This document shows positions 34,888 to 52,292 of a DNA stretch of 64,000 nt, one piece after another. The translations under genes and the position numbers were made by a program. This stretch comes from Leptolyngbyaceae cyanobacterium (GTDB lineage Bacteria; Cyanobacteriota; Cyanobacteriia; Phormidesmidales; Phormidesmidaceae), in NCBI GenBank assembly GCA_965263355.1, contig CBDHHL010000032.1:3808001-3872000 (forward strand), written 5' to 3'. The first letter of the stretch is position 1; every line of letters starts with the position of its first letter. The notes under the pieces are model-generated. The model was not told the DNA's origin and searched no databases. It worked only from the letters and a program-made list of their open reading frames with translations.

Positions 34888-34895
34888 GAGCGCTG

Positions 34896-35615
34896 ATGAA
34901 GCTAGCCAATCCATTGCAGTATCCACTCGCGGTGCTGGCAGGGGGCATTTTCCTGGTAGGCGGGGTGCGTTTGGCGCGGTTGCCTGCGGCGATCGCAATA
35001 CCCGGTGCGATCGTCATTACAACGGCTGGTGCCGCCGTGCTTAAGTCTCGCGAGCCGGACAAGGTTGAGTTGACTAATAAGGCAATCAACCGCGAATTTC
35101 AACAGGTACGACAGCAGGCAGTGGCTTTGGGTGCCAGGGCAGATGAGCTGAATGCAGAGGCAACTAAGCTGCTAACGGCTAGTGATCAGATTGAGCTATT
35201 GGGGGTGGTGCAGTATGCGTGCGATCGCACCCAGGAACTCCCCAAAAAAATTGACCAGCTTGCCCTGCGGCTAGAAGGCAACGATGCCCTGCTCTCCGTT
35301 AGCGATCTGGAACGACAGCTCAAACAAGCCGAAATCAAAGTTCGCAACAGTAAAGGTGTCGCCCAAGAACACTGGGGCAAGCTGGCCAACAGCCTCAAGC
35401 GTAATATCGCCCTTGCCCAGCAAGGTGAAGACGCCCGCCAGGCCCAACTGGCTAATCTATCCACACTCATTGCTGAATCCGGTGGTGTTCTGCAACAGCT
35501 CCAAAACAAACTTCGTACCGCTGACCTCACTAACTCAGTCGCTGCCAATGAACTGCGAGAACTTAGCGATGAATTCAAAGCCGTCCAAGAAAATGTCGAT
35601 GTCCTAATCGCCTAA
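34896..35615 (+). CDS. Membrane-anchored coiled-coil protein
   Basis: Two N-terminal hydrophobic helices, then a long Q/E/L/A-rich helical region; AGGAG RBS. Confidence 0.75.
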   Translation: MKLANPLQYPLAVLAGGIFLVGGVRLARLPAAIAIPGAIVITTAGAAVLKSREPDKVELTNKAINREFQQVRQQAVALGARADELNAEATKLLTASDQIELLGVVQYACDRTQELPKKIDQLALRLEGNDALLSVSDLERQLKQAEIKVRNSKGVAQEHWGKLANSLKRNIALAQQGEDARQAQLANLSTLIAESGGVLQQLQNKLRTADLTNSVAANELRELSDEFKAVQENVDVLIA

Positions 35616-35642
35616 TTTCTATCCATATTTCCCCTCCATTCC

Positions 35643-35684
35643 AATTTTGGTAGAGACGTTCCATGGAACGTCTCTACCAAAATT
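35643..35684. repeat. Perfect 42-bp palindrome with a GTAG-headed REP-like core
   Basis: AATTTTGGTAGAGACGTTCCA|TGGAACGTCTCTACCAAAATT. Confidence 0.92.
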
Positions 35685-35705
35685 ATCCCTTATCCATTCC
35701 CCACT

Positions 35706-36800
35706 ATGTCCAAACCCCTTATCTCCGTCGCCATTATCGCTGCCTCCGCTGGCCTCGCCTACGCTCCTCTTCCCGGCGTTAACCAAACCATTACCATCGT
35801 CAGCGGTAGCGAGCTACAGGAACCCCTCAAACTCCTCGAAACTCGCTTTGAGCAACAAAATCCCTCAATCCAAATAAATCTTGAGTTCCAGGGCTCTCAA
35901 GATATTGTCAATAAATATATCGACGATAACAACGACTTTGAACCGACAGTTCTGATTCCTGCTAATGGACAATTGCTGGATGAACTCAGCCAACGTTGGC
36001 AGGCTCAGTATGGTGATGAACCATTTTATGAGACACCGCAGCCTATTGCCAAAACAATGCTAGTGGCTGTTTCTTGGCCAGAGCGTGCCCAGGCTTTATT
36101 TCCCGGTGGTCAGTTTCAATGGCAGCGATTAGAAGATGCCATGGCCGATGGCAGCTGGAGTAAAATTGGTGGCAATGCTGCCTGGGGCAGCTTTGACTTT
36201 GTTACCACCGATCCTACACGCTCCAACAGCGGTCAGCTTACCATGAGTCTGTGGTCTCAGGCTGAAGCGAATAGTAACAATCTCAACACCAGCGATTTTG
36301 GTAAAAATAATGTTCAAACTTTGTTTGGGTTGGTAAAACGCTCGGTTTATCAGCCTCCCCGCTCCACGGACATTTTGTTGCAAGAGTTTATTGCCCGTGG
36401 TCCCAATGATGCTGACATTGCCACAGTTTATGAGAGTATTGCCCTCCATCGTTGGGAACAGTCCAGCACTACTCAAGGCAAACCTTACCAAATTCTTTAC
36501 CTGGACCCTACCATTGAAACCGTTTCTACCGCAGCCATTGTGCGCCGTGATGTGAGTGGTGGTGAGGCCAAAGCCGCCCGTTCGTTTATCGATTTTCTGA
36601 TCGCTCCAGAACAACAGGCCGTTTTTGTACAGCATGGTTTTCGCCCCATGAATGCCAACGTTGACCTAAATTCTGTTCCCAATAGTCCCTGGGGTCAAAA
36701 CATTCCTGGAGCGATGACGGATCCTAATGGACGTGTAAGTGCTCCCCCAGATCGTACGGTTGTAGAAGAAGTGATTCGTCAGTGGCAACGGGCCAACTGA
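35706..36800 (+). CDS. Extracellular solute-binding domain protein (paralog of the 33157 N-terminal domain)
   Basis: Signal/anchor; GSEL, GSQD, PTRSNSG, VYES and GFRP motifs shared with the vWA lipoprotein. Confidence 0.85.
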   Translation: MSKPLISVAIIAASAGLAYAPLPGVNQTITIVSGSELQEPLKLLETRFEQQNPSIQINLEFQGSQDIVNKYIDDNNDFEPTVLIPANGQLLDELSQRWQAQYGDEPFYETPQPIAKTMLVAVSWPERAQALFPGGQFQWQRLEDAMADGSWSKIGGNAAWGSFDFVTTDPTRSNSGQLTMSLWSQAEANSNNLNTSDFGKNNVQTLFGLVKRSVYQPPRSTDILLQEFIARGPNDADIATVYESIALHRWEQSSTTQGKPYQILYLDPTIETVSTAAIVRRDVSGGEAKAARSFIDFLIAPEQQAVFVQHGFRPMNANVDLNSVPNSPWGQNIPGAMTDPNGRVSAPPDRTVVEEVIRQWQRAN

Positions 36801-36823: not shown

Positions 36824-38596
36824 CTAATCAACTTGAGCCCGAAACCTGACAAAACCGTAGGCCCCTGTCGGATCATTAGAGGCGGAGGGCACATCTCCCA
36901 CATTGACTACAATAAATCCGTTATCTTGGGTTTGGCTTCCCTGGGTTAAATCGTAACGGCAGTAGCTTAACGAATCACTATTATTAGCAATGTACGCTCC
37001 TAGATCAAGATCTTCTGCGTTAGTCAGACTTTGCTCACCGCTGTTACGTCCCAACATAATACCGGTATCTGTAGCAAATGCATTCTCTACAAAGGTGAGA
37101 TAGTCAGGAATGCGATCACACAGTCGAAAATCTTGTGCCACTGTGCCCCCATTGGAAAGAAAATAAATGGTGTATTCAATTTCATCTCCCGGTTCTACAC
37201 TAATGCCATTGACAACTCCACTCAGATAGTTAGCTGGCCACTCTGGTGCATTATCATCGTCATCGGGATCGCCCACATCCACATAAGTACTATCAAATAA
37301 TTGTTCATCAGCCTGCCCCCGATTGATTGCTGTAATTCTTTTAACTAAAGCCATTTGGGGCTTTTCTGACGGCTCAAATGGAAAATTAATATTTAAAATA
37401 TCTGTTGTCAAAAGTGTTACCTGACGCGGATTTGTTTGGGATACCTCTACATCCCCTCCACCATAGATAAGCCCCTCTAGTTCTGGATCAGTTTCATCAA
37501 TATCCACCCAGTAAGTTTCATTCTCTGCCAGGTTGGCAAATAAATACTGTCCACTATTTTGAGTCGCTTGCGTCTCAATTAGTAAATCGTCACCGTTGGT
37601 TTCTAGAATATTGTCGCCATCATCTTTGTAGAGCGTAACTGTTACCTCATCTAATCCGCTCTCACTATTATTCAATAAGTCATCTCGACTCCCATCTTCA
37701 AAGGCAGTACCACTAATTTGGCAACCAGCTGCCATGCCTGAGGTCAGAAAGATAGACTGAGTGGCTCCGCCATCCAGGGGGACACCTACTGCATAGGTGA
37801 TTTGGGTGGTGTCAATAAACATATTTTGATAATCAACCACAATCCGATTGCTAGTTTCATCCTCTGATGGGTTGGGACCTAGTTGTTGGGTATTGGATGA
37901 GTTCGAGTTATCGGTGGAAGATGGGTCATCAGCGAAAGAATGTTTATTACCCAAGAGACTCTCTACCAGAATAGAGCCAGTATAGGTATTGGTAGAGCTA
38001 ATGGATGTTCCGTTTAAAGAACTCTCAACTTCAAGGATGTCACGAAAGCGTACATTACTGTTAACATACTGACTATCGATATCTCCAACCAATATACGAC
38101 TACTACCAATTGGACGATTATAATCAATCTCCAAAACCCAGGAATCACCAGGTTCTCCTTTTCGTTCTGTCAGCTTTGGGGTTCTAAGCCCTGTTTCTGG
38201 GTCGGTAAACTCAATGAAAAAGATATCTGGATCATTGCCGGAGGCCACGAACTGACCACTATTGTTGTTAATGGCCACCGTACGTAAGGTGGCTGTAGTA
38301 CCATCTGGAGCTGTTGCAGTCCACACCGTATCCACTGAATATTTAGCTGCAGGATTGCTACCTCCAGTCATGCCAAAGGGAGCACGATCGGGTACAAAGT
38401 CTCCAAATAAGGTATTGTGGCAGCTTAAGGAAATAGGGGCTTGAGGGGAAGTATCAGGTAATGCCTCCAGGGGAAAAGTCGCTTGGGCCGGTGATGCTAT
38501 GATTAATGTAGCCACAATACTCGTTGCCAGCGCTAAAGAATGGGCAGCGGCCATTTTCCCGTTTCTTATCTTTTTTAATGACTGCAGTCTGTCCAT
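36824..38596 (-). CDS. Secreted DUF11-type protein with SdrD-B-like domain (putative tip adhesin)
   Basis: Signal peptide (AQA); unique N-domain; ISGTAFED...VTVTLY...GQYLF (SdrD-B-like); C-terminal LVKRIT...PGDEIEYTIYF...CDRIP...GFVRFRAQVD. Confidence 0.75.
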   Translation of the reverse strand: MDRLQSLKKIRNGKMAAAHSLALATSIVATLIIASPAQATFPLEALPDTSPQAPISLSCHNTLFGDFVPDRAPFGMTGGSNPAAKYSVDTVWTATAPDGTTATLRTVAINNNSGQFVASGNDPDIFFIEFTDPETGLRTPKLTERKGEPGDSWVLEIDYNRPIGSSRILVGDIDSQYVNSNVRFRDILEVESSLNGTSISSTNTYTGSILVESLLGNKHSFADDPSSTDNSNSSNTQQLGPNPSEDETSNRIVVDYQNMFIDTTQITYAVGVPLDGGATQSIFLTSGMAAGCQISGTAFEDGSRDDLLNNSESGLDEVTVTLYKDDGDNILETNGDDLLIETQATQNSGQYLFANLAENETYWVDIDETDPELEGLIYGGGDVEVSQTNPRQVTLLTTDILNINFPFEPSEKPQMALVKRITAINRGQADEQLFDSTYVDVGDPDDDDNAPEWPANYLSGVVNGISVEPGDEIEYTIYFLSNGGTVAQDFRLCDRIPDYLTFVENAFATDTGIMLGRNSGEQSLTNAEDLDLGAYIANNSDSLSYCRYDLTQGSQTQDNGFIVVNVGDVPSASNDPTGAYGFVRFRAQVD

Positions 38597-38675
38597 GATT
38601 CTACCGTTTTTCTGGAGAAAGCAATTTTGAGAGCAACAGGGACTAGCCTGCTACACCATGAAGGTCAGGAAAGAA

Positions 38676-40781
38676 TTAGGGTTCAACTTGTAAATCTGTT
38701 TCTTGATTCACAAAAGAAATCTCAATGCCGCGTATATCGCTAAACACGAATTCCACCCGTCGATTGCGTGCATAGTTAATTCGGTCGGTTTCATCCACCA
38801 GTAGCTCAGTCTCACCAAAAGATCGAATGGTCATCCGCTCGGGGGCAATTCCCTTTTGTATGAGATACCGTCGTGCATTGTTGGCCCGACGCTCAGCTAG
38901 GTCCTGGTTGTAGGCCACACTTGCTCTGGAGTCAGTATGCCCGTGTAAATCAACAACTATCGATGGATATTGCCTCATTATTGACGCAATTTGGTTTAAA
39001 ATCACCGCACTGTCAGGATTAATAAAATCTTCGTCGAGGCCATAGTGGACATTGCGAGGGACCTGGAGATGGAGGATTTCTGGTTCGGGAGAGGGGGAGA
39101 GGGGGGGAGTGGGGGGAGTGGTACATTCAACAGATACCATGGGGGTGGGCCTCATGCGGTTGGGGCGAGTAGTGCTGGTTTCACCGAGAGCAACGACAGT
39201 CGTATTAAGGGCAGGTTCAGAGGTGCCGTAATCTGGATCGGTGGAAATACCACTGATAACATCACCTGGTTGTAGATCTGTCGACGTATAACTAAAGGTA
39301 CCGTTCTCTTGCACATTTACCGTAGTAAGGGGTTTGGTGAGGGGACCATAGTCTCCTGTATTTCCTTGGGTGAGATAAAGCTGTATTGTGGAACCCACAT
39401 CAGCCTTACCCTGGACCACCACCTGACCATCAATTGCAAAGAACTCAGGACTATCAAACTGGGGTGGATTGATAGCGCTGTTGCCGGTATCTCGTCGCCG
39501 CTGGTGGGAATCACGCAGTGGATTAGGACCATCCCCTCGCTGAAAGTCTTGTACACCTCGATTCCGACGGGTATTGAGGTCAATGCTCAACCCTTCTAAA
39601 TTCTCAAAGTGATTGTTCTCAATTATATTGCGCTGGCTGTGGGTATGAGCTCCCTGACTAAAGGCAGTCACCACTACACCAGGGCCTTTTTGATTGGCAA
39701 TGTGATTGTCCATTATCCGGTGGTCATTACCCATCAAGTAAATGGCTGCCCGTCGCAGACGCTGACCATTAAAACGCATGTCGTTGTTGCTAATCTCTAC
39801 AGCTCCCTGGGGTTTAAACAGGAAGATCCCACTACCGTCATTACCACACATCAAATTTCCACTAATCAGACTATTATCAATGTGGCCTTCCAAACGAATG
39901 GCATCGGGCATCCCCGCTAAGCCATTGTTAACAATGAGGTTCTCAACAATTTCTAAATTCTCAGCTCGGACTCCGGTAATTACTCCACTGCCATCGTGAT
40001 ATGAAATACGATTGTGATGTAGTTTTACCCCTTGACTATTGAAGACAGATATCCCAAAGGCAGAGGGCTGTTTTGGGATACTGTTATCTGCTGGAATACC
40101 GATCCAGTTTTGTTCGATAACAATTCCCTGGGGTGGGTGATTCTCGTCATAAAAAGAGAGATGACTAGCAGGGAGAAACTGCTGGCTAGTATCCAGTTGA
40201 GGTGATTCGTGGGCGATAAAAATATCTGCTGGTGGCGTTGACTCAGTTGCTTTGTGCTCTGAGGTAAACCCGTACAAACTGAAGCCACGAATTGTAATGT
40301 CATCTGCGACGATAGTTAAGCCCCGAAATACTTCAGCATCATTGGCAGGTGTGATTTCTACTACTGGAATCGCCACTAAAATTTCTGCTGTGGCTGATTT
40401 GGTGGCGTCATAACCGGGTTGTGTTGTTCCATCGATGGTGAGTCCAGGCTGGGCTAGGACCGGTAATAGTGACTGCAACTCAATGGTGGTGTTGCCAGTA
40501 GGCAGGTCAAAGGTAATGACTGAATTATCTGAGTTAGGGGTAACTTGTTGCTGTTCTGCATCGCTCAGGTCAGCGGTGGTCAAAGTGCCGTTGGTGATTG
40601 AGATCGCTTCTCGCAAGGTAAGTTGATCATCTACGGTGATCGGTCCATCCTGGGCACTGTTCACCGTAATGTGCACCTTAGGCAAATGAGTATTTTCCAG
40701 GGTTTGGGCGGTAGCCGCCGTAGCCACTGTTGCCAAGAGTAGAGATGTTGCTAAGGTTCGAATAGGTTGACAATGGATCAT
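38676..40781 (-). CDS. OmpA-family protein with right-handed beta-helix region
   Basis: Likely start MIHCQ at 40781 with signal peptide; VNS..D...LTLREAI; N/G-rich beta-helix repeats; OmpA C-domain GHTD...NQDLAERRA...NRRVEF. Confidence 0.87.
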   Translation of the reverse strand: MIHCQPIRTLATSLLLATVATAATAQTLENTHLPKVHITVNSAQDGPITVDDQLTLREAISITNGTLTTADLSDAEQQQVTPNSDNSVITFDLPTGNTTIELQSLLPVLAQPGLTIDGTTQPGYDATKSATAEILVAIPVVEITPANDAEVFRGLTIVADDITIRGFSLYGFTSEHKATESTPPADIFIAHESPQLDTSQQFLPASHLSFYDENHPPQGIVIEQNWIGIPADNSIPKQPSAFGISVFNSQGVKLHHNRISYHDGSGVITGVRAENLEIVENLIVNNGLAGMPDAIRLEGHIDNSLISGNLMCGNDGSGIFLFKPQGAVEISNNDMRFNGQRLRRAAIYLMGNDHRIMDNHIANQKGPGVVVTAFSQGAHTHSQRNIIENNHFENLEGLSIDLNTRRNRGVQDFQRGDGPNPLRDSHQRRRDTGNSAINPPQFDSPEFFAIDGQVVVQGKADVGSTIQLYLTQGNTGDYGPLTKPLTTVNVQENGTFSYTSTDLQPGDVISGISTDPDYGTSEPALNTTVVALGETSTTRPNRMRPTPMVSVECTTPPTPPLSPSPEPEILHLQVPRNVHYGLDEDFINPDSAVILNQIASIMRQYPSIVVDLHGHTDSRASVAYNQDLAERRANNARRYLIQKGIAPERMTIRSFGETELLVDETDRINYARNRRVEFVFSDIRGIEISFVNQETDLQVEP

Positions 40782-40839
40782 GGCTCTAGCCTCTGCAGCA
40801 TCAAGTGAACGGAGAAATAGTTGCGTGAAAAAAATAATT

Positions 40840-43800
40840 TCATAGTGCTTGACCTTTAATAGACTCATTGGTTGCATCTATGTCTTCGTTATTCTCGATT
40901 ACATTTTCATCTAGTTCTAAATCTTCAGATAACTCTTCGGGAGATGTGCTTGGTATGGAGACTTGGCCTGGAAAGAGGATGTTGGTGGTATCTTCAAAGA
41001 AAATGGCTGGTTCCTCAGGTTCTAACGTAGATTCTTGTTGTTGTTCTGGCGCAATATCTTGTAGTCCAAAGCCATCAAATAAGCTATTAATCTTTGCTGA
41101 TACACCTAGGTAAAAACCACTGGCCGAGCGGTTTACACCAAAATCATCATCGTAGGCACCGCCACCGCTGTAGCCTCCATAAATTCTCATGTTAGGTGTA
41201 GGATAGTAACCAGCTTCTATGGCATAACCTATTTCGTTATAATCGCCTAATCCTCCAGCCCAACGGGCTTCAGCACTCATGTCCCAGCTGTAGCCAAACC
41301 TGTAGGTTGCTCTTAACTGGGCTAAGTGCAAGCTGTTGTTGGAAACAAAGTCACCGCCTTCATCAGTGGGCAAATTAATTTTAGTTTGACTATGACGAAA
41401 GGCATACTTGCCGTAAAATTCCCATTGCCAGTTGGGAGCATAGATAGCCTCGGCTGAGAACAAATGCTCAGCTGTGTCGATGCTGCGGCCAAATAGTGCA
41501 TTAGTGGGTAAAGTCCCCGGATTAATACGATGTTCATATCGCATAAGCGCATTGAATCGGTCATCGTTTGGATCACGATAGGCCAGACCTAGCTTTAGAT
41601 TGCTAGTGGTACCAATATTACTAATGCCCTGATTTGCGGCCCTATTGAGCTGATAGTTGAATAATGCACTGACAGCAGGTGTGAGTCGTCCCACCGCTGA
41701 TGCATTAAACGTCGTATTGGAGTTTTCGGAAGAGTCACGGTGCTCAAATCGGGCACTGGCTTGCAAATCTGGGTTATCCGTATAGGATAGTCCGACGGTA
41801 TAGGTATTGCCGTTAGTCAGTCCAAGAGATGACCCACCCGTGCCTACGGCAAAAGGCTGACTAAATTGAGAGCCTGCAGCGGTACCCCCAAGGATGCTGT
41901 TAAAGGTGCGTTCATACCCCAAGTCGAGTCGCAGACCAGGGCTCAGATTAAATCCATGTTCAATACCGATAGATCCTCCCAGGTGTTGCCCATCGATACT
42001 ACTGAATCGTCCACGGAGTGTCGTATCTTCGCCCAATGAATGTTCTCCAGAAATATCAAAAATGGTGTAAGAGTCGCGATCGCTCAATCCTTCATCCCCA
42101 TAAAATACTTGGCCTAATGCCAGGTTTATACCCGGCATAAATTCCCAATCAAGGCCAAAGAATGTTCGACTGGGGTAAAGAGGGTCGCTATCGGATGAAA
42201 GATTGAGTTCATTTTGAGCTCGCAGAGTGAGCTTATTGGTTAGGCGGGTGGTTAAGCGAGTCCGTAATTGATCAGAACTGGTGGTTAGTTGGTCAGGATT
42301 GGTACGGTCGGTGCGATCGCGATGAATCCAATCAAACTCCAGATTAGAATCGCCTAGACGCTGGGCTAGCCCTAGTGAGTAAGTTGTCAGGGAATTGTCT
42401 ACTTGTCTTCCAGGTACTGGATTCTGGCCAGGTTCTAACAAATCTTCAAGATTGGTAATGGGGCGTGGCGCTACTCCGTTATTATCCTCATGGTCAAACT
42501 GAGCACGAAGTGTGGTGTTACGGCTGACCTTGATATTGGCCTGGACTCCATAGCGGGTCTGTCCCGGAACAAAACTGGTGGTGGCGGCATTGGTAAATCC
42601 GGCGTCAGTAGAGCGCCAATAGGCCCGACCATTTAACCAATCACCCACTGCACCGTCTAGCTCCACACGATAGGCCGATCCACTAATGGGGCCAGACAAG
42701 TCAAAGTCACTTTCTGAATGGGCTACCTCAGCTATCAGACGACTGCTTTCTCCTAAAGAGATCTGGGCATCGGCACCAAATAGAGTAAAGTTTCGACTTC
42801 CCTGATTTTCTCGGAGGTAAGACGTGCCTAGCCAGGACGCTTGATTAAGATCACGGTTAAAGTTGTACTGCAACCGCCCAGCTAAAATATTGGTATTAGT
42901 GTTTTCCCCTTCATACTGGTAGGTAACCACAATCCGGCGTACTAAGACTGTCCCAAAGTCACCCACTGCCGTTTGGGCTACCGGATCTTCAAACAGCAGG
43001 GTGCCACGATCGTAGTCGATGTCATAGTCTGTGTTGCGATGTAAACGCTCCCGTTCGATGACAGTCCCTGGTCGATCTAGTTCTTCGGTTTCGATATAGA
43101 CTTGTTCACTCCCGGAGATCACTAATCGTCGTGAGAGAAAGTAGAGACCGCTGGTGCCATCTGGGGCAATGGTGTCGCGTTGAAAGCCTTCAACGTTATC
43201 ACCATAAAAACCTGTGATTGCTAGATCTCCCAGGTTATAATTCAGCTTAAAGCCATGGAGCTGGCGCGACGTGGACGTAAATAACTGAGATGAATTAGCG
43301 AATTCTTCGGTGTTATAATCTCCCCACATAATATAGTCGGCAGTTGCACCTTCTACAGGTGAGGTTCTTTCTAACCGCAGGTATAAATTGTCGGTAGAGG
43401 GGGTGGTAACATCCATAGTTGAGTCGTCACCATATACCGGATAGAGATTGGTACAACTCCCTGAACTTTGACGAAATAGTGCTGTTTCGCCACGGCAATC
43501 TTCGTTGAGGGCGCGATCACTATTAAATGCTCCAGTTAACAACCACTCACCAACATTACCCATGGTAAAGAGAGAGGCATCTAGATCAAGGCCATAGGCA
43601 TTGTCGCCATCTGGTGGTAAAAAATCTCGTAAACTGTCATGGAAATTCGTCCCCCGTGCGCCAAATCGTAAATCAACAATGCCCGTGGCAATACTGGGGC
43701 GTTGGGGAGTAATGAATTGTACCTGGTTAAAGGCTTCTAATCCATTGCTGGCAGCTTGTAATTGTACTATGTGGGCGTCAAGTGATGACTGCAACTCCGC

Positions 43801-44904
43801 TGTAAAACGTCCATTTTTGGCTTCTACCTGGAAACCTGGTTGGTCAGCTACATGATCTACCCCAACAAATTCACCATCGCTAGAGTTAAGGGTGACAATA
43901 GCATCCCAGTTAGATATATTACCATTGCTGTCTAGTAATTGTCCCTGTAGTGTAGTCGTTGAGCGTCCATCTGCCGGAATTTTTGATTCACGAGTATGGA
44001 GCGTCATCTCGGTAGGGGCTCCTCGCACTTCAACTGTAGTTGATTGCAATATACTACTGTCACTGCTACGTAGCACCGTTATAGTGTTAGTCCCCTCTGT
44101 CAAGGGGACACCATACCAGGTCTGGGTGACTAAATTAGTGGCAGGATCAGTTTCGGTGCGACCAATTGAGTCGTCATTGACGGTGTTATCATTCACTTGT
44201 AGTTGAATGTTGGCACCAGTTGGAAAGCGAACAATGACTGTGATAGCAGGTACATCGACCACACTGTCTGATGTCGGATTTACGATTTCAACTTGGTTTT
44301 CTGATATAATTTGAGAGAAACTATGGGTAGACTCAGCAGTAAGTGCTTCTGTCTTAGAAATTTCTTCCTCTAATGGAACATCTGTGAGATTTGCTAGAGT
44401 TTCGGTAGAAGTAAAGTCGTGGGTAGACGATACTTCTGTCGTACTCAATAGAGTAGATTCATTAAGTGTGATCGTCTCAGCTGAGGTTGGCCTGGCTGAA
44501 CTTGACAACTTTGGTGCTAGTAGAGTTTGGGAGGCTGTTTCTTGACTAAGTTTATGTTCCGACCCTACCTTAGGTGGAGAGGCATAGGCCAAGCTACTGA
44601 ATGCAATAGTTGATAGTGCTACTGAGCTACCTAGAAGAGTTTTTAATTGTCGGGGAGATAGTTTATAAGGTAGAGGATTTACCCTCTCTAATTTTGATCT
44701 TAGTAGTGAAATAAATCTTGTTTCTGGATTGATTGTTTTGTTGTTGTTAAGCAAAAAGCTTAACAGCTCAGTCCTTGACTTTAAAGAGGACGTGGATACT
44801 GTTTTTTTATCTCTCGCTCCCCTCTGAGTGTTGATTTGCTGTTTTAGATTGATAACAGCTAGAAGCTTTAAGTAGGAGCTTTTAGGATTTTGGTTGGATG
44901 ACAT
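40840..44904 (-). CDS. Very large outer-membrane beta-barrel protein with periplasmic Ig-like domains
   Basis: Signal-like segment at about aa 88-108; invasin-like IPADGRS Ig domain; YPVYGDDS and DYDIDYDRGTL motifs; long amphipathic-strand C-terminal half; start overlaps the stop of the upstream gene. Confidence 0.75.
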   Translation of the reverse strand: MSSNQNPKSSYLKLLAVINLKQQINTQRGARDKKTVSTSSLKSRTELLSFLLNNNKTINPETRFISLLRSKLERVNPLPYKLSPRQLKTLLGSSVALSTIAFSSLAYASPPKVGSEHKLSQETASQTLLAPKLSSSARPTSAETITLNESTLLSTTEVSSTHDFTSTETLANLTDVPLEEEISKTEALTAESTHSFSQIISENQVEIVNPTSDSVVDVPAITVIVRFPTGANIQLQVNDNTVNDDSIGRTETDPATNLVTQTWYGVPLTEGTNTITVLRSSDSSILQSTTVEVRGAPTEMTLHTRESKIPADGRSTTTLQGQLLDSNGNISNWDAIVTLNSSDGEFVGVDHVADQPGFQVEAKNGRFTAELQSSLDAHIVQLQAASNGLEAFNQVQFITPQRPSIATGIVDLRFGARGTNFHDSLRDFLPPDGDNAYGLDLDASLFTMGNVGEWLLTGAFNSDRALNEDCRGETALFRQSSGSCTNLYPVYGDDSTMDVTTPSTDNLYLRLERTSPVEGATADYIMWGDYNTEEFANSSQLFTSTSRQLHGFKLNYNLGDLAITGFYGDNVEGFQRDTIAPDGTSGLYFLSRRLVISGSEQVYIETEELDRPGTVIERERLHRNTDYDIDYDRGTLLFEDPVAQTAVGDFGTVLVRRIVVTYQYEGENTNTNILAGRLQYNFNRDLNQASWLGTSYLRENQGSRNFTLFGADAQISLGESSRLIAEVAHSESDFDLSGPISGSAYRVELDGAVGDWLNGRAYWRSTDAGFTNAATTSFVPGQTRYGVQANIKVSRNTTLRAQFDHEDNNGVAPRPITNLEDLLEPGQNPVPGRQVDNSLTTYSLGLAQRLGDSNLEFDWIHRDRTDRTNPDQLTTSSDQLRTRLTTRLTNKLTLRAQNELNLSSDSDPLYPSRTFFGLDWEFMPGINLALGQVFYGDEGLSDRDSYTIFDISGEHSLGEDTTLRGRFSSIDGQHLGGSIGIEHGFNLSPGLRLDLGYERTFNSILGGTAAGSQFSQPFAVGTGGSSLGLTNGNTYTVGLSYTDNPDLQASARFEHRDSSENSNTTFNASAVGRLTPAVSALFNYQLNRAANQGISNIGTTSNLKLGLAYRDPNDDRFNALMRYEHRINPGTLPTNALFGRSIDTAEHLFSAEAIYAPNWQWEFYGKYAFRHSQTKINLPTDEGGDFVSNNSLHLAQLRATYRFGYSWDMSAEARWAGGLGDYNEIGYAIEAGYYPTPNMRIYGGYSGGGAYDDDFGVNRSASGFYLGVSAKINSLFDGFGLQDIAPEQQQESTLEPEEPAIFFEDTTNILFPGQVSIPSTSPEELSEDLELDENVIENNEDIDATNESIKGQAL

Positions 44905-46451
44905 TATTGGACTTTCTCCTGGAACGTGGGCGTGACGCCAAAGTTCATGCGCACCATGCCACCGGGAGCAATATTTACCATCCGAGACTGGCTGTTGCGT
45001 TCTTTAAAGTAAAGGTTGGGAGCCAGGGTATAACCAGGTAAGCTGGTTAAATCCAGAACTCCGCTACGGGTACCTGGTAACATGCACTGGACTGAGTACA
45101 AACCATCAGCATCGGTAACAATGCGATTGCCATCGTCTAAGAAGATCACAGCATTGGGGACACCGGCTTCACCTGGCTGTTGTTCCCCATCAAAGTTTTT
45201 GTCAACAAAGACACGGCCAATTAATGTGGCACAGTCTGTGAGAATACCTGGGTCAATGACGAGTCGGTGAATACTCGGGCCATCTTGTACAAAGAGTTGA
45301 TTGTCGCTGCGCTCAGCTGTAACCAATGCGGAGTTCTCGCCATCGCCTCGCAGGGCATCCGGCGTGACTTGTACGGCGTAAAGTACACTCATCGACGTAT
45401 CCACGGGTAGGGGAACTGTCGTTGTAAAGGTGACTTCAGAGCCAGATGCTTGGGCATCCATGGCAACAGTTTGCTCGTTTAGGACTCCGGTAACGGATTC
45501 GGGAATGAGTTGAAAACCTTGGGGGAGAAAGTCCTGAACCGTAACGGAATCTAGTTCAATATCGGTTAGATTGCGTAATTCTAAGCGATAGACAACGGTG
45601 TCACCCGGCTGAGCTGCAGCACGGTCAGCTGTTTTTGTAATACTAATTTGGTTTGGATCGCACATCACCATACCGAAGGCCAGAGAAAACAGGTTGAGTC
45701 CCTGGGTTTCGGCATTAAAAATTTCGACAACAGTTTCGCTGATTTGTTCACCACCACTGGTACTGATTGGAATGCCATCTAACGCAGTTGCGGTATAGCG
45801 AATGATGGAGCTGTTAACGCCGTCGGCACTGGTTACAAGCTCCAATTTGATGCGACGTTGGGGGTATACAGAATCTGCTGGCGGATTGACCACTAGAATA
45901 TATTGAGCGTCTGTGCTGGTTTGAGTGAATCCTGCATTAACGGCGCTTTGCAAGGGGGTTTCTGGATCAAATAAGAAGTTATATTGTCCAGCATCGGCAT
46001 TGGTTAAGAAAAATGGATTGCTGTTCTCTGTGTTGGGAGCTTTACCACCAGGAATGCTATTATTTTCAATGTCAGGTAGTTCTGTCCCTGTGAGGGGAAC
46101 GATGGGACCTAAGTCTAAGCCACTGGCATCAGGCTCATATAAAGCAACAGAAAAACCGTCATAATTTGGTAATAAATCTCCGTTACAACCTAAAATTTGA
46201 CCTAGTGGATCGATCAGGGAACTGGTTTCAACTATGATCTCTGCGGATACACCACCCAGCGTAATGTTGAGATCGCCATCTCGATATTGGTAGGTAGCCT
46301 GATTGTAAATTTCACCAGCTCTTGCGATCTCAACAAATGATGCCTGACTAACGCTGCATGCTAGCAAAAACGCTACCATGCTATGGGGCCATCTGTGCTT
46401 GGCACCTAGTTTTAGTTTGGGTGACTGAAATAATTTCATTATGAACCTCAA
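44904..46451 (-). CDS. DUF11 plus SdrD-B-like secreted protein (putative base/anchor subunit)
   Basis: Signal peptide; IYNQATY N-terminal strand; complete DUF11 ITKTADR..PGD...QDFLP...ENSA; GRVFVDKNFDG.Q..GE.GV. Confidence 0.8.
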   Translation of the reverse strand: MRFIMKLFQSPKLKLGAKHRWPHSMVAFLLACSVSQASFVEIARAGEIYNQATYQYRDGDLNITLGGVSAEIIVETSSLIDPLGQILGCNGDLLPNYDGFSVALYEPDASGLDLGPIVPLTGTELPDIENNSIPGGKAPNTENSNPFFLTNADAGQYNFLFDPETPLQSAVNAGFTQTSTDAQYILVVNPPADSVYPQRRIKLELVTSADGVNSSIIRYTATALDGIPISTSGGEQISETVVEIFNAETQGLNLFSLAFGMVMCDPNQISITKTADRAAAQPGDTVVYRLELRNLTDIELDSVTVQDFLPQGFQLIPESVTGVLNEQTVAMDAQASGSEVTFTTTVPLPVDTSMSVLYAVQVTPDALRGDGENSALVTAERSDNQLFVQDGPSIHRLVIDPGILTDCATLIGRVFVDKNFDGEQQPGEAGVPNAVIFLDDGNRIVTDADGLYSVQCMLPGTRSGVLDLTSLPGYTLAPNLYFKERNSQSRMVNIAPGGMVRMNFGVTPTFQEKVQ

Positions 46452-46738
46452 CCCTAAACAATTAAAAAATTAGCGTTAGTAACAGTTTTGCCTGTTGCGA
46501 TAGTGCAAGCGCTGACTTGTCAGTTTTTGCATTAGAAGAGGCAATTAGTCAGGTCGCTGTTATCAGTGAAATGCCACTGACTACTCACCATTGTTTGACC
46601 AAATTTTTGCGTGAGCGCTCAGTCGAATGCTCAGGTCAAGCTTGCTATCCACAAGAATGAGTGTGATGCAAGCCTAGAGAAGACTTTTCTAAAGCAGCCA
46701 GAGTATTGATACGTAAAGCCTTAATTATGGAAATGTTG

Positions 46739-46774
46739 AAAGAAAAGCATGGGAGGAGAAGATGCCCCTCCCAT
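46739..46774 (-). terminator. Internal terminator/stabilising hairpin within the DUF11 cluster
   Basis: ATGGGAGG...CCTCCCAT stem followed on the minus strand by a T-rich run, right after the 193-aa gene. Confidence 0.6.
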
Positions 46775-46783
46775 AGTCAAGAG

Positions 46784-47365
46784 TTACTTGACTTTAACGT
46801 TGTATGACGCTCTAACAGATTGTGCGGAAGCTAGATCGTCGCCGAAGTTCCACTGGATGTGCGTATACATTTCAGCAGGTGCAGGTTGCAGCTCAACCGT
46901 ACCATCGGGCAGGGTAACTTCAATCAGAGGCTCAGTCACAAAACTTTGGCCACCATCAATGCTGTAAACAATTTCAGCGCTGCTATCAGTATTAGCTGAA
47001 TTAAGAATATAGCTTGTTTGGTTAGGTACAGGCTGAGTGACAGATAGCCCTTTGGCCTCAATATCACCAGAGTTAGCACCATCAACCATGTAACGTAGAA
47101 CATCACCAGGTTGAACGGTAACTTTACCTTCAAGGGCTTCCCAAGAGATTTTCTCCTGGCCATTGGTGTCTAACTTAACAAGTTGTTTTTCTGCGCTTAG
47201 CGTTAGTTTGACCTCAGGGCGCAGTACAGCTTGAACAATGGCTTCCTTAACTTCCTGTAGCTGAGCCATTACAGGTTGATTGCTAGCAAAAGGGATAGCT
47301 CCTACTAAAGCCAATGCCCCTAGACCCAACAAAAGACGTTGCTTGGCAAAAAGACGTCGCATCAT
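46784..47365 (-). CDS. Single DUF11-like domain secreted protein
   Basis: Signal peptide; VQPGDVLRY...NSG...QPVP...YSIDGG...YTHIQW...ASYNVKVK. Confidence 0.8.
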   Translation of the reverse strand: MMRRLFAKQRLLLGLGALALVGAIPFASNQPVMAQLQEVKEAIVQAVLRPEVKLTLSAEKQLVKLDTNGQEKISWEALEGKVTVQPGDVLRYMVDGANSGDIEAKGLSVTQPVPNQTSYILNSANTDSSAEIVYSIDGGQSFVTEPLIEVTLPDGTVELQPAPAEMYTHIQWNFGDDLASAQSVRASYNVKVK

Positions 47366-47472
47366 AATTATTCTCGTTTAATTCTAAAGATTGTGTACGG
47401 TTCAAGGTCTAACCTTGGAGCAAGGGGCCAACTTCATCAGAGAATTTCCTTACTCCAGGAAATATATTAGGG

Positions 47473-50130
47473 TTAGTTAATTCGACGCTCAAACTCAACG
47501 TAGCCAGACTCTAAGGGCTCGACATCACCATCCACTTTAAAGACGTACTTAGTCGTGTCTGTGTTGTAAGATGTGCCCGAGAGTTCAGTTGTTGGTGTCG
47601 CTACATCTGGGTTAAACGCAGGTAAATCGCTAGCGTTGCAGACTTCGCTACCATTAAAGAACAAGACAGTACCGGTTGACCCATCGTCTAGGTTAGTCAA
47701 GTCAACTGAATTTTGTACATGGCGAGTGTCAAGATCGCCATTGGCATCGTTATCGTAGGCCCAGTTGTTAGCATCGGTAGCCGCCGCTGGACAACCCAGC
47801 TCTGTACCATCCTCAAGGATGGTTAGGTCAGATGCAGTCAACAAGACGTTGCCCTGCATAGGCGCAATCTCAGCTTCAGAGATGTTGCGATAGGTAACGC
47901 GATAACGAATGTGGTTACCCGGAGCAGGATTACCCGAGACTTCTGGACCATCACCACGAACAACCTGAGCAGTTTTCACAAGTTCTAAGAACCCCGTGTA
48001 AACCCGGTCAATGGTGATGTTTTCGGTTGTTGATGTATCTAAGACATTGGTAATGTCGGTGGTGTCAATGCCGTCATTATCGCTGCCAACGTCCTCAGCC
48101 TGAACCGCACTGACACCTGCAAAGGTGGCTACGATAGGTATAGGGAAGCTATCTAACTCCGTAATAACAGCCGGGTCGTTGGGTAAGTCAACCTCAACAC
48201 CGTAGTCAAATTCATCATCGCCGCCAGGTACCCCATCATTAGCGCGGATTGGCACAATAATGTCAGGATCAGTTAAAGTAGTCTTGCCCCAATTAGCACC
48301 ATTGTAGATGTATTCAACTCGAGTACCATCAGGTGCAATGATGGTAGCTGTTGTATTGTCAGGTAGTGCAGCCGGGTCATCCGGTGTAATTGGCTCTAGG
48401 CGAACCCAACCATCTTCAGTGCCAGAGTTGTCAACAGTATTGGTGAACTCAACGACAGGTGGATTACCATCAGAATAGGGAGCGGACTTATTGGTGAAGT
48501 CATCGTTAGTACCCGTAGGACCAACTGCATCAGGTGCTCCATCAGGACCATTCAACAGGTCAGCAACAGGTTCGGGTACTAGAGTGACAACAATGGCTTC
48601 ACCATCACCGTCAGTATTGTCACCTGTGTTGTCATCACCAGGGACAGTGGGGGTATTGCCGCCAGGGTCAATCCCTTGCTCAAGTAAGTCCGTGGGATCC
48701 TCGATATAACCGTCACCGGGCGTGAATCCCTCAGGTAGAGGTGTTGCAGGATCATCAATCACATCAGGATTGAAGTTGCTATAGGTGTCGGTATCGGGGT
48801 CGTAGTTACTGGGCGTGTCGTCACCAGATTCATCCATGACCGGAAAGCTGAGAGACTCGTCCTCTGGAGTTAGGGGATCGTCAACAACACCTGAACCGAA
48901 AACCTGAGCAATGTTAGCGACGGTGATGGGGGCAGCTGTCGGATCAACTCCATCGGTAACCACAGTTATTTGGAAACCGGTTACAGAAGTGCTACGTGGG
49001 ATTGCCGTGTTAGCAGGACCGATAAAACCAACTCGGGTGGCACCTGCTGGGTTAGTAGACCAAGTTGCTTCAAGGGCACTCGTTGTTAATGGATCAGAAG
49101 TATAGACGACACTCCAACCTGCTGCAGGGGTGGGAGGAGTAGGACTTAGAGAAGTGCCGTCCGGAATGGCGTCAGATACTAGTACATGTCTGTCGCTCAA
49201 TCCATTGAGCGTTATAGGCTGTAGATCAGCCGCTTGGGCGTCACTGCCAGCTGGGACTCCATTGTTATCTAGAACGTCAAATTCAAGGTCATAGGTGATG
49301 GTGTCATCTAGGGGATCCGCATTACCTTGGTCACTATAGTCGTTGATGGACTTCTTCAGTTCAACCAAAGGCTGCTCAAGGGGCTCTTCACCAATCGTGA
49401 TTTCACCCGTTGCACTGGCTTCACGCTCACCGTTAGTCGGTGCCTCAGGACCTGCTTCTTCTGCAGTCTGACTACCATTAGCAACGTCAGTAGCATCGTT
49501 GTCATCTGTGAAGACACTACCTCCAGAGGAGTCGTAGGGCTGGTTTTGACCATCGCCAGGCGTATCACCATATTGAACGCTGACGATATCATCGTTTTGC
49601 GCACTGGTGGAGACCTGAACAATCACCTGAACATTAAATGAGTCCCCAGGCGCAATGTTTTCTACGTCTGTTCGATTCGCAATGTCAGTTTCGTAGGTGC
49701 CATCGCCGTCTAAGTCAGCTCTGATGCTAACAACACTATCTACAGGACCAGTGAAATCAGCTACAGCAGGTAAACTAATGTCAGTTTCATCGTTACCGAC
49801 GTTCGTGACTTCAAAAATGTATTCTAGTTGCTCACCAGGGCCTGGAGGATCTGCGTCTGGTGTGACTTCTTGAGCAGCGGTGTTAACAACGGTAATACCA
49901 GCAATCTCAGCTACTTCGACCACAACTGTATTTGAGGTCGAAGTCTGAGGTGTACCATCGGGGTCACGATAGGTAGCAGTCGCAGTGTTGGTGATTTGTG
50001 TGCCAGCAGCAGTGCCATTTGCCAGTACAACACCCACTAGGTTAAACACACCGCCAATGGCAAGTGCGGATGCAATGACTGGCTTACAAAGCTTCCAGCT
50101 TAGTCTCTTAGAACTTATATTCTTTGTCAT
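47473..50130 (-). CDS. Large acidic DUF11-repeat secreted protein (putative major filament subunit)
   Basis: Signal peptide; GTAAGTQITNTATATY N-terminal strand; several F.VTN.GN / DUF11 modules; C-terminal LELVK...PGNHIRY...EFERRIN. Confidence 0.8.
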   Translation of the reverse strand: MTKNISSKRLSWKLCKPVIASALAIGGVFNLVGVVLANGTAAGTQITNTATATYRDPDGTPQTSTSNTVVVEVAEIAGITVVNTAAQEVTPDADPPGPGEQLEYIFEVTNVGNDETDISLPAVADFTGPVDSVVSIRADLDGDGTYETDIANRTDVENIAPGDSFNVQVIVQVSTSAQNDDIVSVQYGDTPGDGQNQPYDSSGGSVFTDDNDATDVANGSQTAEEAGPEAPTNGEREASATGEITIGEEPLEQPLVELKKSINDYSDQGNADPLDDTITYDLEFDVLDNNGVPAGSDAQAADLQPITLNGLSDRHVLVSDAIPDGTSLSPTPPTPAAGWSVVYTSDPLTTSALEATWSTNPAGATRVGFIGPANTAIPRSTSVTGFQITVVTDGVDPTAAPITVANIAQVFGSGVVDDPLTPEDESLSFPVMDESGDDTPSNYDPDTDTYSNFNPDVIDDPATPLPEGFTPGDGYIEDPTDLLEQGIDPGGNTPTVPGDDNTGDNTDGDGEAIVVTLVPEPVADLLNGPDGAPDAVGPTGTNDDFTNKSAPYSDGNPPVVEFTNTVDNSGTEDGWVRLEPITPDDPAALPDNTTATIIAPDGTRVEYIYNGANWGKTTLTDPDIIVPIRANDGVPGGDDEFDYGVEVDLPNDPAVITELDSFPIPIVATFAGVSAVQAEDVGSDNDGIDTTDITNVLDTSTTENITIDRVYTGFLELVKTAQVVRGDGPEVSGNPAPGNHIRYRVTYRNISEAEIAPMQGNVLLTASDLTILEDGTELGCPAAATDANNWAYDNDANGDLDTRHVQNSVDLTNLDDGSTGTVLFFNGSEVCNASDLPAFNPDVATPTTELSGTSYNTDTTKYVFKVDGDVEPLESGYVEFERRIN

Positions 50131-50730
50131 TATTTTTGAGAACTAATAAATAAAGTTAGGTTAAGCACCATTTTGTTAATAACAAAAGGCTAGGGGGCAG
50201 CAAGATTCAGATGAGGTCGTGATCATTAAAACGAGTGAACAGCTTAACAATCACAAACTAAGGTTGCTAAAATTCCAATCAATCAAGAGTATGCATTAGT
50301 TCAATATCACTAACTCTTTTAAGCTACTTGTGATATTTGATACTAAGCAAAGAAGATTCTTTCAGGACTAAATTGGATTTTTGAGCAAGGTGAAAAGAGA
50401 CTTGAAAACAGATCTTTTTGAAAGATAAACAATATCAATCTCTTTTTAAGTAGCTTTTGATGTTAATTGTTTCACATACTATTGGATGCCCAATGTGTAT
50501 GATTTTTTCGCTAAGTCATAGCACGTGTCTTTGAGTTTGTCTGATCAAGTATTTTTTCGGTCACAATATGTGCGAAATATGTGCTTTTTACCTATGTCGC
50601 AAATATGTATTGCACTTAAATAAGTAATTGATTGAGTATTTTTTACGTAGGCACTAGCGTGTAATCTATTTTTTGAAGCAAGTAATATCAATCAGTGGCT
50701 TTGAGGTATGGGCAGATAAGCTGAAATTAT

Positions 50731-50772
50731 AAAAAGCGCATGGGATCAATTTCTAACTCCCATGCGCTTTTT
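50731..50772. terminator. Intrinsic terminator after the GAF kinase
   Basis: AAAAAGCGCATGGGA...TCCCATGCGCTTTTT. Confidence 0.82.
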
Positions 50773-50834
50773 AATGTTGAGATCTTCTGATCTTGCTCAG
50801 AAATTTAGTTCACACAAAAAGATATTGATTATGA

Positions 50835-52292
50835 TTAGGTTACGTCAAATGGAGGTAAGCTGACGATATAGCGATAGCCACTGTTCTGAGAACCTTGAAT
50901 AGCAATTTCACCACTATGGATATCTGTAAAATGTTGACTGAGCAATAAGCCGAGTTCTTGCCATATGTCGTTGGCTACGATGCCATTCGATGATTCATTA
51001 CTTTGTATTAAAGGTGTGATTTCTTCGATAATTTCAAATCCATAGGAGGATTCTTGTTCTGATGACAATGATAGAAGTTTATTCTGTTTTGCCCAGTTAA
51101 TCAATTTCTGAGGTAAGTTTTCGCCGAGCCATGGATTTGAGACCCATGTAGCTAAGTTGAGGCGATCTTCTTTGCGTGAAATATGAAGTCTTATAGTACT
51201 ACCACTTGTAGATGCTTTGGTAATACTAAGAATAAGGTGGTAAAGGAGTTGTTTGATAATGCGTTTGTCGAGGACCCAGATGCGTGACCCTGGTTCTACC
51301 GTTAGATTAAAGTTTAAATCTTCTTTGTTAGATCTTTCTTCTATGGGCTGCAAGCTCTGTTGAGCGAGCATTTCAATGTCTACGGGTGCAAGCGACAGTT
51401 CAGAGGATTGGTTGTCAAGTGCCCCCAATTCCATAATCTCATTGGTCAGGGACAGCAGGTTCTGACTACTTTGTAAAACAATTGTTGCGTATTCCTGTTG
51501 TTTCTTGGTTAATGGTCCATAAATCTCACGGCTTAGCATGCTGGCCATGCCAGTGATTGCGGTTAATGGATTGCGCAAATTTTGGGTGAGTTGAGAGATT
51601 AAACTTGTACGTAAGGTGTCGATTCGATCTTGGCGTTTCTTTTCTGGTGTACCCAGGTGATTGTTCTCTGAGGTGCCCTGTTGAATAGTGCCATCTTTTA
51701 ACCAACACTGTTTTTCATATTCACTCATTGCCCATCTGGCATTGAGTTCTAGCAGAGCCAGGTCTTGAGATGTATACTGCCGTGGCATGATGTCCATAAT
51801 TTCTAGGGTACCAATGCAGCATCTGTCAGAAGTCAGCAGTGGGACACCCAAATAAGCTTGAACACCATATTTTTGCACTAAGACACTTTGGCTAAATGCG
51901 GGATGCTGGGTTATGTCTGATAGCATTAGCGATTGACCGCTATCAATCACTTGAATGCCAAATGATTCGGCTTTAGGCAGTTCACGAGTGGCGGCGAGCT
52001 GATTCATTAGCCCCAAGCTAGATAATCCCATGGTGGCCTTAAAAATCTGGCTCTGGCTGTTAAATACGCTGACTAGACAAATAGGTGCTGCCAATAGCCG
52101 AGAAACGCTTTGAGTCGCTTCTTCAAAAATGGGAATGGGTTTAGAACCATTGAGTCTAAGTTGTTCAAGCGCACTCAATCGCATCTGCTCTCGTGCCATG
52201 GGCGACGTTCCATCCAGTGAACATGCAGGACGAGGACCCATGGATGTATTGGGTTGCTTATTTGTTCCAGCTGGGGTAGCGCCGTAGTGCAT
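50835..52292 (-). CDS. GAF-domain histidine-kinase-like protein lacking the phosphoacceptor His
   Basis: GAF domain (AYLGVPL...IGTL); HisKA-like LTQNLRNPLT; degenerate HATPase boxes. Confidence 0.85.
   Translation of the reverse strand: MHYGATPAGTNKQPNTSMGPRPACSLDGTSPMAREQMRLSALEQLRLNGSKPIPIFEEATQSVSRLLAAPICLVSVFNSQSQIFKATMGLSSLGLMNQLAATRELPKAESFGIQVIDSGQSLMLSDITQHPAFSQSVLVQKYGVQAYLGVPLLTSDRCCIGTLEIMDIMPRQYTSQDLALLELNARWAMSEYEKQCWLKDGTIQQGTSENNHLGTPEKKRQDRIDTLRTSLISQLTQNLRNPLTAITGMASMLSREIYGPLTKKQQEYATIVLQSSQNLLSLTNEIMELGALDNQSSELSLAPVDIEMLAQQSLQPIEERSNKEDLNFNLTVEPGSRIWVLDKRIIKQLLYHLILSITKASTSGSTIRLHISRKEDRLNLATWVSNPWLGENLPQKLINWAKQNKLLSLSSEQESSYGFEIIEEITPLIQSNESSNGIVANDIWQELGLLLSQHFTDIHSGEIAIQGSQNSGYRYIVSLPPFDVT

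Follow-up and report, generated by a model that had tools for sequence, protein, structure and literature searches.

Gene content and organization of the locus

A window of 64,000 nucleotides from the genome of a Leptolyngbyaceae cyanobacterium (GCA_965263355.1, contig CBDHHL010000032.1, positions 3,808,001 to 3,872,000; coordinates below are those of this window) was analyzed for a six-gene cluster that an earlier note, made from the DNA letters alone, had proposed to encode an isopeptide-crosslinked pilus. All six open reading frames (ORFs) lie on the minus strand with the coordinates and lengths claimed, the quoted motifs were found, and the stop codon of the base gene overlaps the ATG of the barrel gene by one base, at 44904. 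On balance, the operon probably encodes a head-to-tail surface fiber built from a split CLIPPER (DUF11-type, CnaA-like) domain and exported via its own barrel. The genes are as follows:

47473..50130, minus strand, shaft subunit gene (885 amino acids)
46784..47365, minus strand, small-protein gene (193 amino acids), secreted acceptor-type domain
44904..46451, minus strand, base subunit gene (515 amino acids)
40840..44904, minus strand, outer-membrane barrel gene (1354 amino acids)
38676..40877, minus strand, gene of a beta-helix/immunoglobulin-like (Ig)/OmpA C-terminal protein (733 amino acids)
36824..38596, minus strand, tip subunit gene (590 amino acids)

A Pfam and NCBIfam scan returned DUF7925 in the shaft, DUF11/TIGR01451 in the base, small protein and tip, OmpA and beta-helix matches in the 733-residue protein, and Ig-domain matches only in the barrel protein. 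The closest relatives belong to the marine cyanobacteria Leptothoe (89%) and Adonisia (75%). Synteny was sampled in 77 cyanobacterial loci, 68 of which, with at least 6.5 kilobases (kb) of downstream sequence, were assessable; the order shaft-small-base-barrel is kept in all 68, and the gene 3' of the barrel is a tip gene in 28, a beta-helix-OmpA gene in 20, and another or cut gene in four.

Split-domain topology of the shaft

The shaft comprises a signal peptide, a donor hairpin, three complete beta-sandwich domains (approximately residues 78-245, 253-518 and 522-714) and an incomplete acceptor domain (715-885), these limits being taken from an AlphaFold2 model built from 87 sequences (mean predicted local distance difference test, pLDDT, 84.6). 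Three of its parts are central to the argument:

49903..50019, minus strand, donor hairpin, residues 38-76 including Asn48 (codon 49987-49989), from conservation, model and complex
48577..49374, minus strand, internal complete CnaA/CLIPPER-like domain with K260/D320/N406, from Pfam, structure match and conservation
47473..47988, minus strand, acceptor domain minus its last two strands, with K719 (47974-47976), Y743 and E773 (47812-47814)

The internal domain is complete, as had been claimed: it carries a DUF7925 match (residues 256-443) and the K260/D320/N406 triad, and it fits both the solved CLIPPER structure 9IFR (Z 8.2, root-mean-square deviation [rmsd] 2.9, 122 aligned) and the isopeptide pilin BcpA (Z 9.1, rmsd 3.0, 128 aligned). 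According to the strand lists of the model, the acceptor parallels this domain through the strand at 381-391 and then ends, with no equivalent of either the N406 strand or the last one, which bears out the earlier reading of the C-terminal domain as incomplete. The orphan N-terminal piece bearing Asn48 was likewise recovered, though not as the single strand then described, a notion dropped in favor of a two-strand hairpin (strands 45-55 and 61-72 in the model, interface 38-76) whose first strand has the same break as its internal-domain counterpart. As modeled, the N-terminal hairpin is the strand pair missing from the C-terminal CLIPPER/DUF11-type acceptor domain.

The shaft sequence gave no PDB match at expect values up to 1, and Foldseek returned generic Ig chains only, at template-modeling (TM) scores of 0.15 or less. 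A VIA structure search of the shaft model barely covered residues 38-76 and 715-885 and does not inform the acceptor fold. Short shafts of 567-613 residues (P0148, P0175, P0180, P0194, P0216, P0244, P0261) also occur, which keep hairpin and acceptor, apparently without the internal DUF7925.

Conservation of the split triad

Conservation was assessed in an alignment (A2) of 142 near-full-length shaft homologues, 41 from 120 matches listed and 101 more from 150 listed, which excludes partial matches, giant fusions and short forms and is thereby biased toward sequences with both ends. N48 is kept in 141 of the 142, K719 in all 142, and Y743 is invariant; position 773 is Glu in 132 and Asp in ten, and the C-terminus falls exactly three residues past R882 in 112. 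K719 and K260 are the only lysine columns above 85%. All three residues of the split triad (K719, E or D773, N48) are present in 141/142 homologues, and all three of the internal triad (K260/D320/N406) in 128/142; in thirteen homologues only the split triad survives, and in one neither does. Given the conservation of N48, K719, the acid at 773 and the C-terminus, the split-domain pattern lies far beyond chance.

CnaA bonds connect the first strand to the penultimate one, in many cases beneath an aromatic cap, and typically use Asp as the catalytic acid (PMC12617251). The internal domains of shaft and base are CnaA-like sandwiches of this kind, with Lys on the first strand, an acid, and Asn on the penultimate strand, and a DUF7925 member with an equivalent internal triad is listed in the same source (PMC12617251). 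K719, N48 and the invariant Y743 agree with this arrangement, and by topology and conservation the split form appears to share the Lys/acid/Asn layout.

Modeling of the shaft-shaft complex

Shaft residues 710-885 were modeled together with shaft residues 38-250, alongside three controls. The complex scored 0.90, against 0.00 for the best of the controls, a level attained by 116 of 157 solved complexes and by two of 215 mismatched pairs. At least 95% of contacts agree between runs, and the pLDDT of the partner is 85 or higher. On the partner side, the interface consists of residues 38-76 and four others; strand 51-55 is paired with 766-772, N48 contacts Y743 and N788, and K719 adjoins residues 66-67. 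The expectation that the N-terminus would fill the acceptor of a second shaft is thus met by the model, by way of the hairpin; the predicted Lys-Asn contact is not among the 25 closest pairs listed.

Base, tip and small protein

The base consists of a donor hairpin (Asn50), an unnamed domain, a complete DUF11 domain (K273/D307/N373) and a C-terminal SdrD_B-like domain, so that its description as donor-only holds, whereas its description as having the N-terminal strand as sole feature does not. N50 is kept in 74/74 homologues, as are K273, D307 and N373, and the base hairpin aligns with the shaft hairpin at a profile alignment probability of 95.5. One further feature falls within this gene:

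44922..45239, minus strand, base C-terminal domain, which in different phyla immediately precedes the barrel or is joined to it, a putative barrel-docking unit

The tip has a variable N-terminal region, an SdrD_B-like domain (residues 297-368, a weak Pfam match) and an acceptor domain (412-590; K419, D494), and is without a donor hairpin. K419 and D494 are kept in all 28 closed ORFs, which share the same C-terminal column. The tip is therefore an acceptor with an N-terminal domain of its own, as had been proposed, although the SdrD_B-like domain had been missed. The N-termini of 24 proteins scanned vary, matching DUF6923, GEVED, VWA, LTD, P-domain, DUF11 repeats or nothing. In the Nostoc genome G005 a tip gene (L087, G005:C1:4303405-4306965) lies ~180 kb from an operon that is without an adjacent tip.

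The small 193-residue protein represents a third kind of incomplete domain, a single DUF11-like domain without a donor hairpin. Aligned to the shaft acceptor, it has Ala58 where the acceptor has its Lys and Gln111 in place of the acid, and none of 14 diverse members read by eye has Lys at the former position (0/14). It thus appears to be a crosslink-dead acceptor, and is a candidate chaperone or cap. A base-tip pair is self-limiting and occurs without the small gene, whereas the self-chaining shaft always occurs with it, which argues for a chaperone role; we lean slightly toward a periplasmic holder that binds shaft hairpins reversibly, preventing early polymerization or self-closure.

Barrel and OmpA protein

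The earlier identification of the 1354-residue protein as a large outer-membrane barrel is supported by a model of residues 195-1300 (54 sequences, pLDDT 78.9), which has ~38 long strands, counted by hand and uncertain by a few; the protein further comprises two N-terminal Ig domains and one inserted beta domain. A profile of 54 sequences gave no sequence match in the PDB, and no close solved structural relative was found among the fits, the best being partial barrels or the Ig domains of beta-galactosidase or invasin; ESM Atlas matches for the barrel and the small protein are unnamed or DUF11 clusters. Base and barrel are fused in L078, L138, L154 and L160-L191, and in L084, L144, L145, L151 and L155 the barrel carries a fused OmpA-like domain. 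We presume, from its size, that Anabaena All3289 is an orthologue of this barrel. All3289 is described as a 1289-residue protein with an outer-membrane anchor other than a typical OmpA (PMC9705863).

The 733-residue OmpA protein, whose likely start is nearer residue 34 judging from homologue lengths, had been proposed as a peptidoglycan tether. It does have an OmpA domain, but it is mostly beta-helix, and its presence 3' of the barrel in just 20/68 loci rules out a core component and makes it accessory. The beta-helix of this protein (38676-40877) also occurs without OmpA (L140) or doubled (L137).

Distribution and variant loci

A survey of 301 genomes sampled from the phylum detected the barrel in 44 of them, a match to the shaft profile in 38 and the small gene in 36. 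All 36 genomes with the small gene also have shaft and barrel, and the eight remaining barrel genomes, whose completeness is not given, have neither; two shaft-profile matches lie in frames of more than 2400 residues in genomes without a barrel match (G028:C1, G218:C1). Shaft-like domains were observed within proteins of 1400-2700 residues (P0128, P0135, G028:C1, G218:C1).

Nine of 20 regions around divergent barrels (L137, L140, L141, L142, L147, L148, L149, L152, L156) represent a shaftless locus type with a short base, a barrel and a tip, in which the short base comprises a hairpin, DUF11 and the C-terminal domain, and a beta-helix-OmpA gene is optional; several genomes carry both locus types. 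Three close relatives (L102/G003, L105/G002, L106/G001) have three to five tandem tip/linker genes after the OmpA gene, several of which carry both donor hairpin and acceptor and could be inserted as minor subunits.

The search for synteny in other Gram-negative genomes, which the earlier note had suggested, showed that the pattern recurs in Thermus, Deinococcus and Acinetobacter-like loci. The Thermus and Deinococcus plasmid loci have the same five genes and the same donor/acceptor pattern, which is also present at two loci of genome G021. Among metagenomic relatives of an Acinetobacter protein, twelve of 36 loci were inspected and ten have an intact shaft between the small gene and a base-barrel fusion, the exceptions being L172, which is cut, and L193, a base-barrel fusion alone. 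On an Acinetobacter haemolyticus plasmid (L078:9215-12049), the shaft position is occupied by several short annotated ORFs, the gene being apparently in pieces. The barrel of Sinorhizobium, Roseivivax and Eleftheria comes after a single giant repeat adhesin that ends in the base C-terminal domain, a pair that is the unsplit counterpart of the fiber operon. A proteobacterial two-gene form, a one-piece repeat adhesin with the same barrel family (L079:875-14745, L081, L082, L083), suggests a general secretion route via this barrel family.

Proposed assembly and alternative explanations

The scheme of an acceptor tip, a donor-plus-acceptor shaft, a donor base and a dedicated barrel, put forward in the earlier note, is upheld by topology, the controlled complex model, conservation, synteny and recurrence across phyla; complementary split domains, triad conservation, synteny and co-occurrence are all read from the sequences. 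In the proposed assembly, subunits would cross the inner membrane by Sec, and the last domain of each, being without its final two strands, would accept the hairpin at the mature N-terminus of the subunit that follows it on the cell side, as modeled for shaft-shaft and by extension for tip-shaft and shaft-base. Hairpin insertion would rebuild a two-chain isopeptide site, in which the acceptor contributes Lys and acid, the donor contributes Asn and a Tyr lies nearby, whereupon the bond would form by itself. The fiber would run from a variable tip adhesin through optional linkers and many shafts to one base, probably assembled tip first and base last; having no acceptor, the base would end growth, and its C-terminal domain may dock on the barrel, as gene order and fusions suggest. 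The folded growing chain would thread the very wide barrel, which the OmpA domain, where present, may tie to peptidoglycan. Hairpin complementation between chains is very likely; a covalent lock between subunits is likely, a long shaft polymer equally so, and export through this barrel only a little less so. The fiber likely serves adhesion or mat formation.

Several observations weigh against this reading. The homologues are related, many being from Nostoc, and the conservation counts are consequently not independent; 16 of the 68 assessable loci have no same-strand gene 3' of the barrel. Alignments by profile between complete domains and the hairpin or the acceptor are weak or off-register and mostly not significant; significance was reached by hairpin-hairpin (95.5) and base DUF11-small protein (92.1) only. 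Because of their likeness to solved Ig folds, the two halves of a split domain are prone to pass the complex test, so that the pass speaks for fit and not for binding in the cell or a bond. The single-chain shaft model also gives the hairpin a pLDDT of ~95, making closure within one chain possible, K719-N48 is absent from the 25 closest pairs, and the acid is Glu in 132/142 cyanobacterial shafts rather than the Asp typical of CnaA (PMC12617251).

The last two points would fit the same fiber held by hairpin complementation alone, with Lys, Glu and Asn kept for folding and no bond formed. Certain DUF11 domains are indeed without a bond (PMC12617251), and BsaA N35A oligomers withstand unheated sodium dodecyl sulfate (PMC11580942). 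The small protein nevertheless keeps the fold with neither Lys nor acid, a buried Lys is invariant in 142/142 at this position only, the split triad outlasts the internal one, and Thermus, Deinococcus and Acinetobacter-like shafts carry the usual Asp; fixation without a bond is accordingly considered unlikely.

That the shaft forms no long polymer, and either closes on itself or acts as a spacer, present in one or a few copies, within a short stalk of tip, shaft and base, is slightly less probable still. Such a stalk would accord with the high hairpin confidence of the single-chain model, with the shaftless loci, in which base, barrel and tip suffice alone, and with the use of the same barrel family by one-piece adhesins. 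Donor-only and acceptor-only partners, however, make sense solely in trans, every added shaft renews a free end, and the dedicated small partner is found only alongside the shaft.

A shed matrix or sheath fiber like TasA or BsaA, for which the barrel merely anchors the base or exports without assembling and another exit such as type IV pilus machinery is used, draws on the BsaA oligomers being secreted matrix fibers with type IV pilus-linked export (PMC11580942), on tips encoded far from the operon (G005) and on the barrel's export role being only predicted, but it is just as improbable as the short stalk, since, among the 301 genomes, those lacking the barrel had neither shaft nor small genes, save for shaft-like domains in two giant proteins, and base-barrel fusions suggest a cell-attached root.

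Expression signals and neighboring genes

One sequence element was found within the operon:

46748..46775, minus strand, terminator-like hairpin separating the small gene from the base gene, from a sequence scan

This hairpin offers weak support for higher expression of shaft and small gene. A terminator after the small gene was rejected as a general feature, similar hairpins occurring there in just 18/85 loci; they occur after the shaft in 24/85 and after the barrel in 7/80. A promoter scan gave 16 matches versus 23.2 expected by chance, i.e., below chance.

On the plus strand, positions 33157-36800 hold a three-gene cluster (solute-binding plus VWA, coiled-coil-like, solute-binding) that ends 24 bases from the tip stop codon. 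Upstream of the operon and on its strand is a GAF-HisKA sensor gene (50835-52292), a possible regulator, within a stretch of low guanine-plus-cytosine content (0.39 at 50001-52000). A secreted protein of 156 residues at 30853-31323, with a C-terminal Phe and no Pfam match, resembles a small outer-membrane barrel.

Comparison with known systems

Chaperone-usher pili (FimH-FimA-FimI with FimC and FimD; Pap) have an acceptor-only tip, a donor-only terminator, an outer-membrane barrel and a small periplasmic helper. As in these pili, an incomplete C-terminal Ig-like domain is here predicted to be filled by the N-terminus of the next subunit, with the same polarity. Unlike them, the donor has two strands, the shaft is a multi-domain 90-kDa protein with a predicted covalent lock, the small helper resembles the acceptor and not a strand donor, and the barrel has ~38 strands against 24 for ushers, fitting FimD loosely (Z 13.3, rmsd 10.7, 351 aligned). 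Pfam and NCBIfam gave no PapC/FimD usher match among the six proteins, nor did Pfam give a PapD-family two-domain chaperone, the sole small gene encoding the one-domain DUF11-like protein. The earlier contention that the system is unlike chaperone-usher pili thus holds for its components and fails for its logic, which is close in polarity.

The type IX translocon SprA is a single-chain barrel of 36 strands that passes folded proteins. The barrel studied here resembles SprA in being a very large single-chain barrel; it fits SprA loosely, as one of many poorly fitting barrels (Z 12.7, rmsd 12.3, 414 aligned of 2124), its profile has no sequence match to SprA, and the cluster holds no type IX secretion genes. 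It differs in size and Pfam content from autotransporters (12 strands) and TpsB (POTRA plus 16 strands), which the base-barrel fusions resemble in layout only. Type V pili of Bacteroidota use lipoprotein precursors and a protease-triggered C-terminal donor strand. The distinction from these pili proved correct, the donor being N-terminal in the complex model and the signals ending in A-x-A with no lipobox cysteine (by eye), as did that from type IV pili, no class III pilin signal, assembly ATPase or secretin being present among the six proteins.

Donor-strand complementation of an incomplete Ig-like domain (described in PMC11821415) takes the form of a two-strand hairpin in the shaft-shaft model. 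Clostridium perfringens BsaA, of the TasA family, combines donor-strand exchange with an autocatalytic Lys-Asn lock, in which the donor gives Asn and the acceptor Lys and Glu (N35, K74, E56), as is predicted here; BsaA, however, is a Gram-positive matrix fiber with SipW and a single donor strand, as opposed to the dedicated barrel, tip and base found here (PMC11580942). No TasA-family match was found in the six proteins, and no SipW-type peptidase in those or six scanned neighbors. The CLIPPER (DUF11), CLIPPER_2 (DUF7507) and DUF7925 fibrillar adhesins share a kindred domain and triad, but are described in the accessible text of PMC12617251 solely as forming intramolecular bonds in single-chain adhesins; the terms 'split', 'donor', 'barrel' and 'outer membrane' are absent from its main text. 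Sulfolobus threads (Saci_0406) are likewise donor-strand filaments assembled head to tail, for which an intermolecular isopeptide bond has been proposed and a cap gene is present, yet they are archaeal, without an outer-membrane barrel, and their bond is between Asn57 and the N-terminal amine of subunit n+2 rather than between Lys and Asn (PMC9715654). The enterococcal WxL (Elr) pilus is also a chaperone-guided donor-strand pilus with an invariant attachment module and a variable tip payload, but is confined to Bacillota, sortase-anchored and dependent on a membrane chaperone and other domains (bioRxiv 10.64898/2026.10.17.759780). The Litorilinea DUF11 hook (bioRxiv 2025.08.19.671072), haloarchaeal tafi (PMC11821415) and the Microcystis tubular pilus (PMC12397347) were set aside as different systems. 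A full-text literature search, which covered few subscription journals and no supplements (where genes could be listed), found no description of the operon as a pilus, and the system is real, conserved and apparently undescribed.

Significance

Gram-positive bacteria are known to make covalently linked pili, whose subunits are joined by sortase, and self-catalyzed linkage is known from BsaA and archaeal threads; the literature found describes none in outer-membrane bacteria. It is an evenly balanced proposition that cyanobacteria, Deinococcota and Proteobacteria share a widespread, undescribed diderm pilus class and secretion route, i.e., a natural tag-and-catcher polymer made without sortase or ATPase, in which one CLIPPER domain is divided between a catcher and a two-strand tag, a crosslink-dead catcher acts as a reversed chaperone, a ~38-strand barrel also serves one-piece giant adhesins, and swappable tips and linkers provide many binding ends. 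If true, this would constitute a new pilus class, one whose export channel through the outer membrane may rank with the widest single-chain barrels; it would also show how a one-chain repeat adhesin can become a polymer by the splitting of one repeat, and would supply natural covalent tag-catcher pairs, thermostable ones included. For mat-forming cyanobacteria, with the barrel present in 44 of the 301 sampled genomes, it would provide a testable surface structure.

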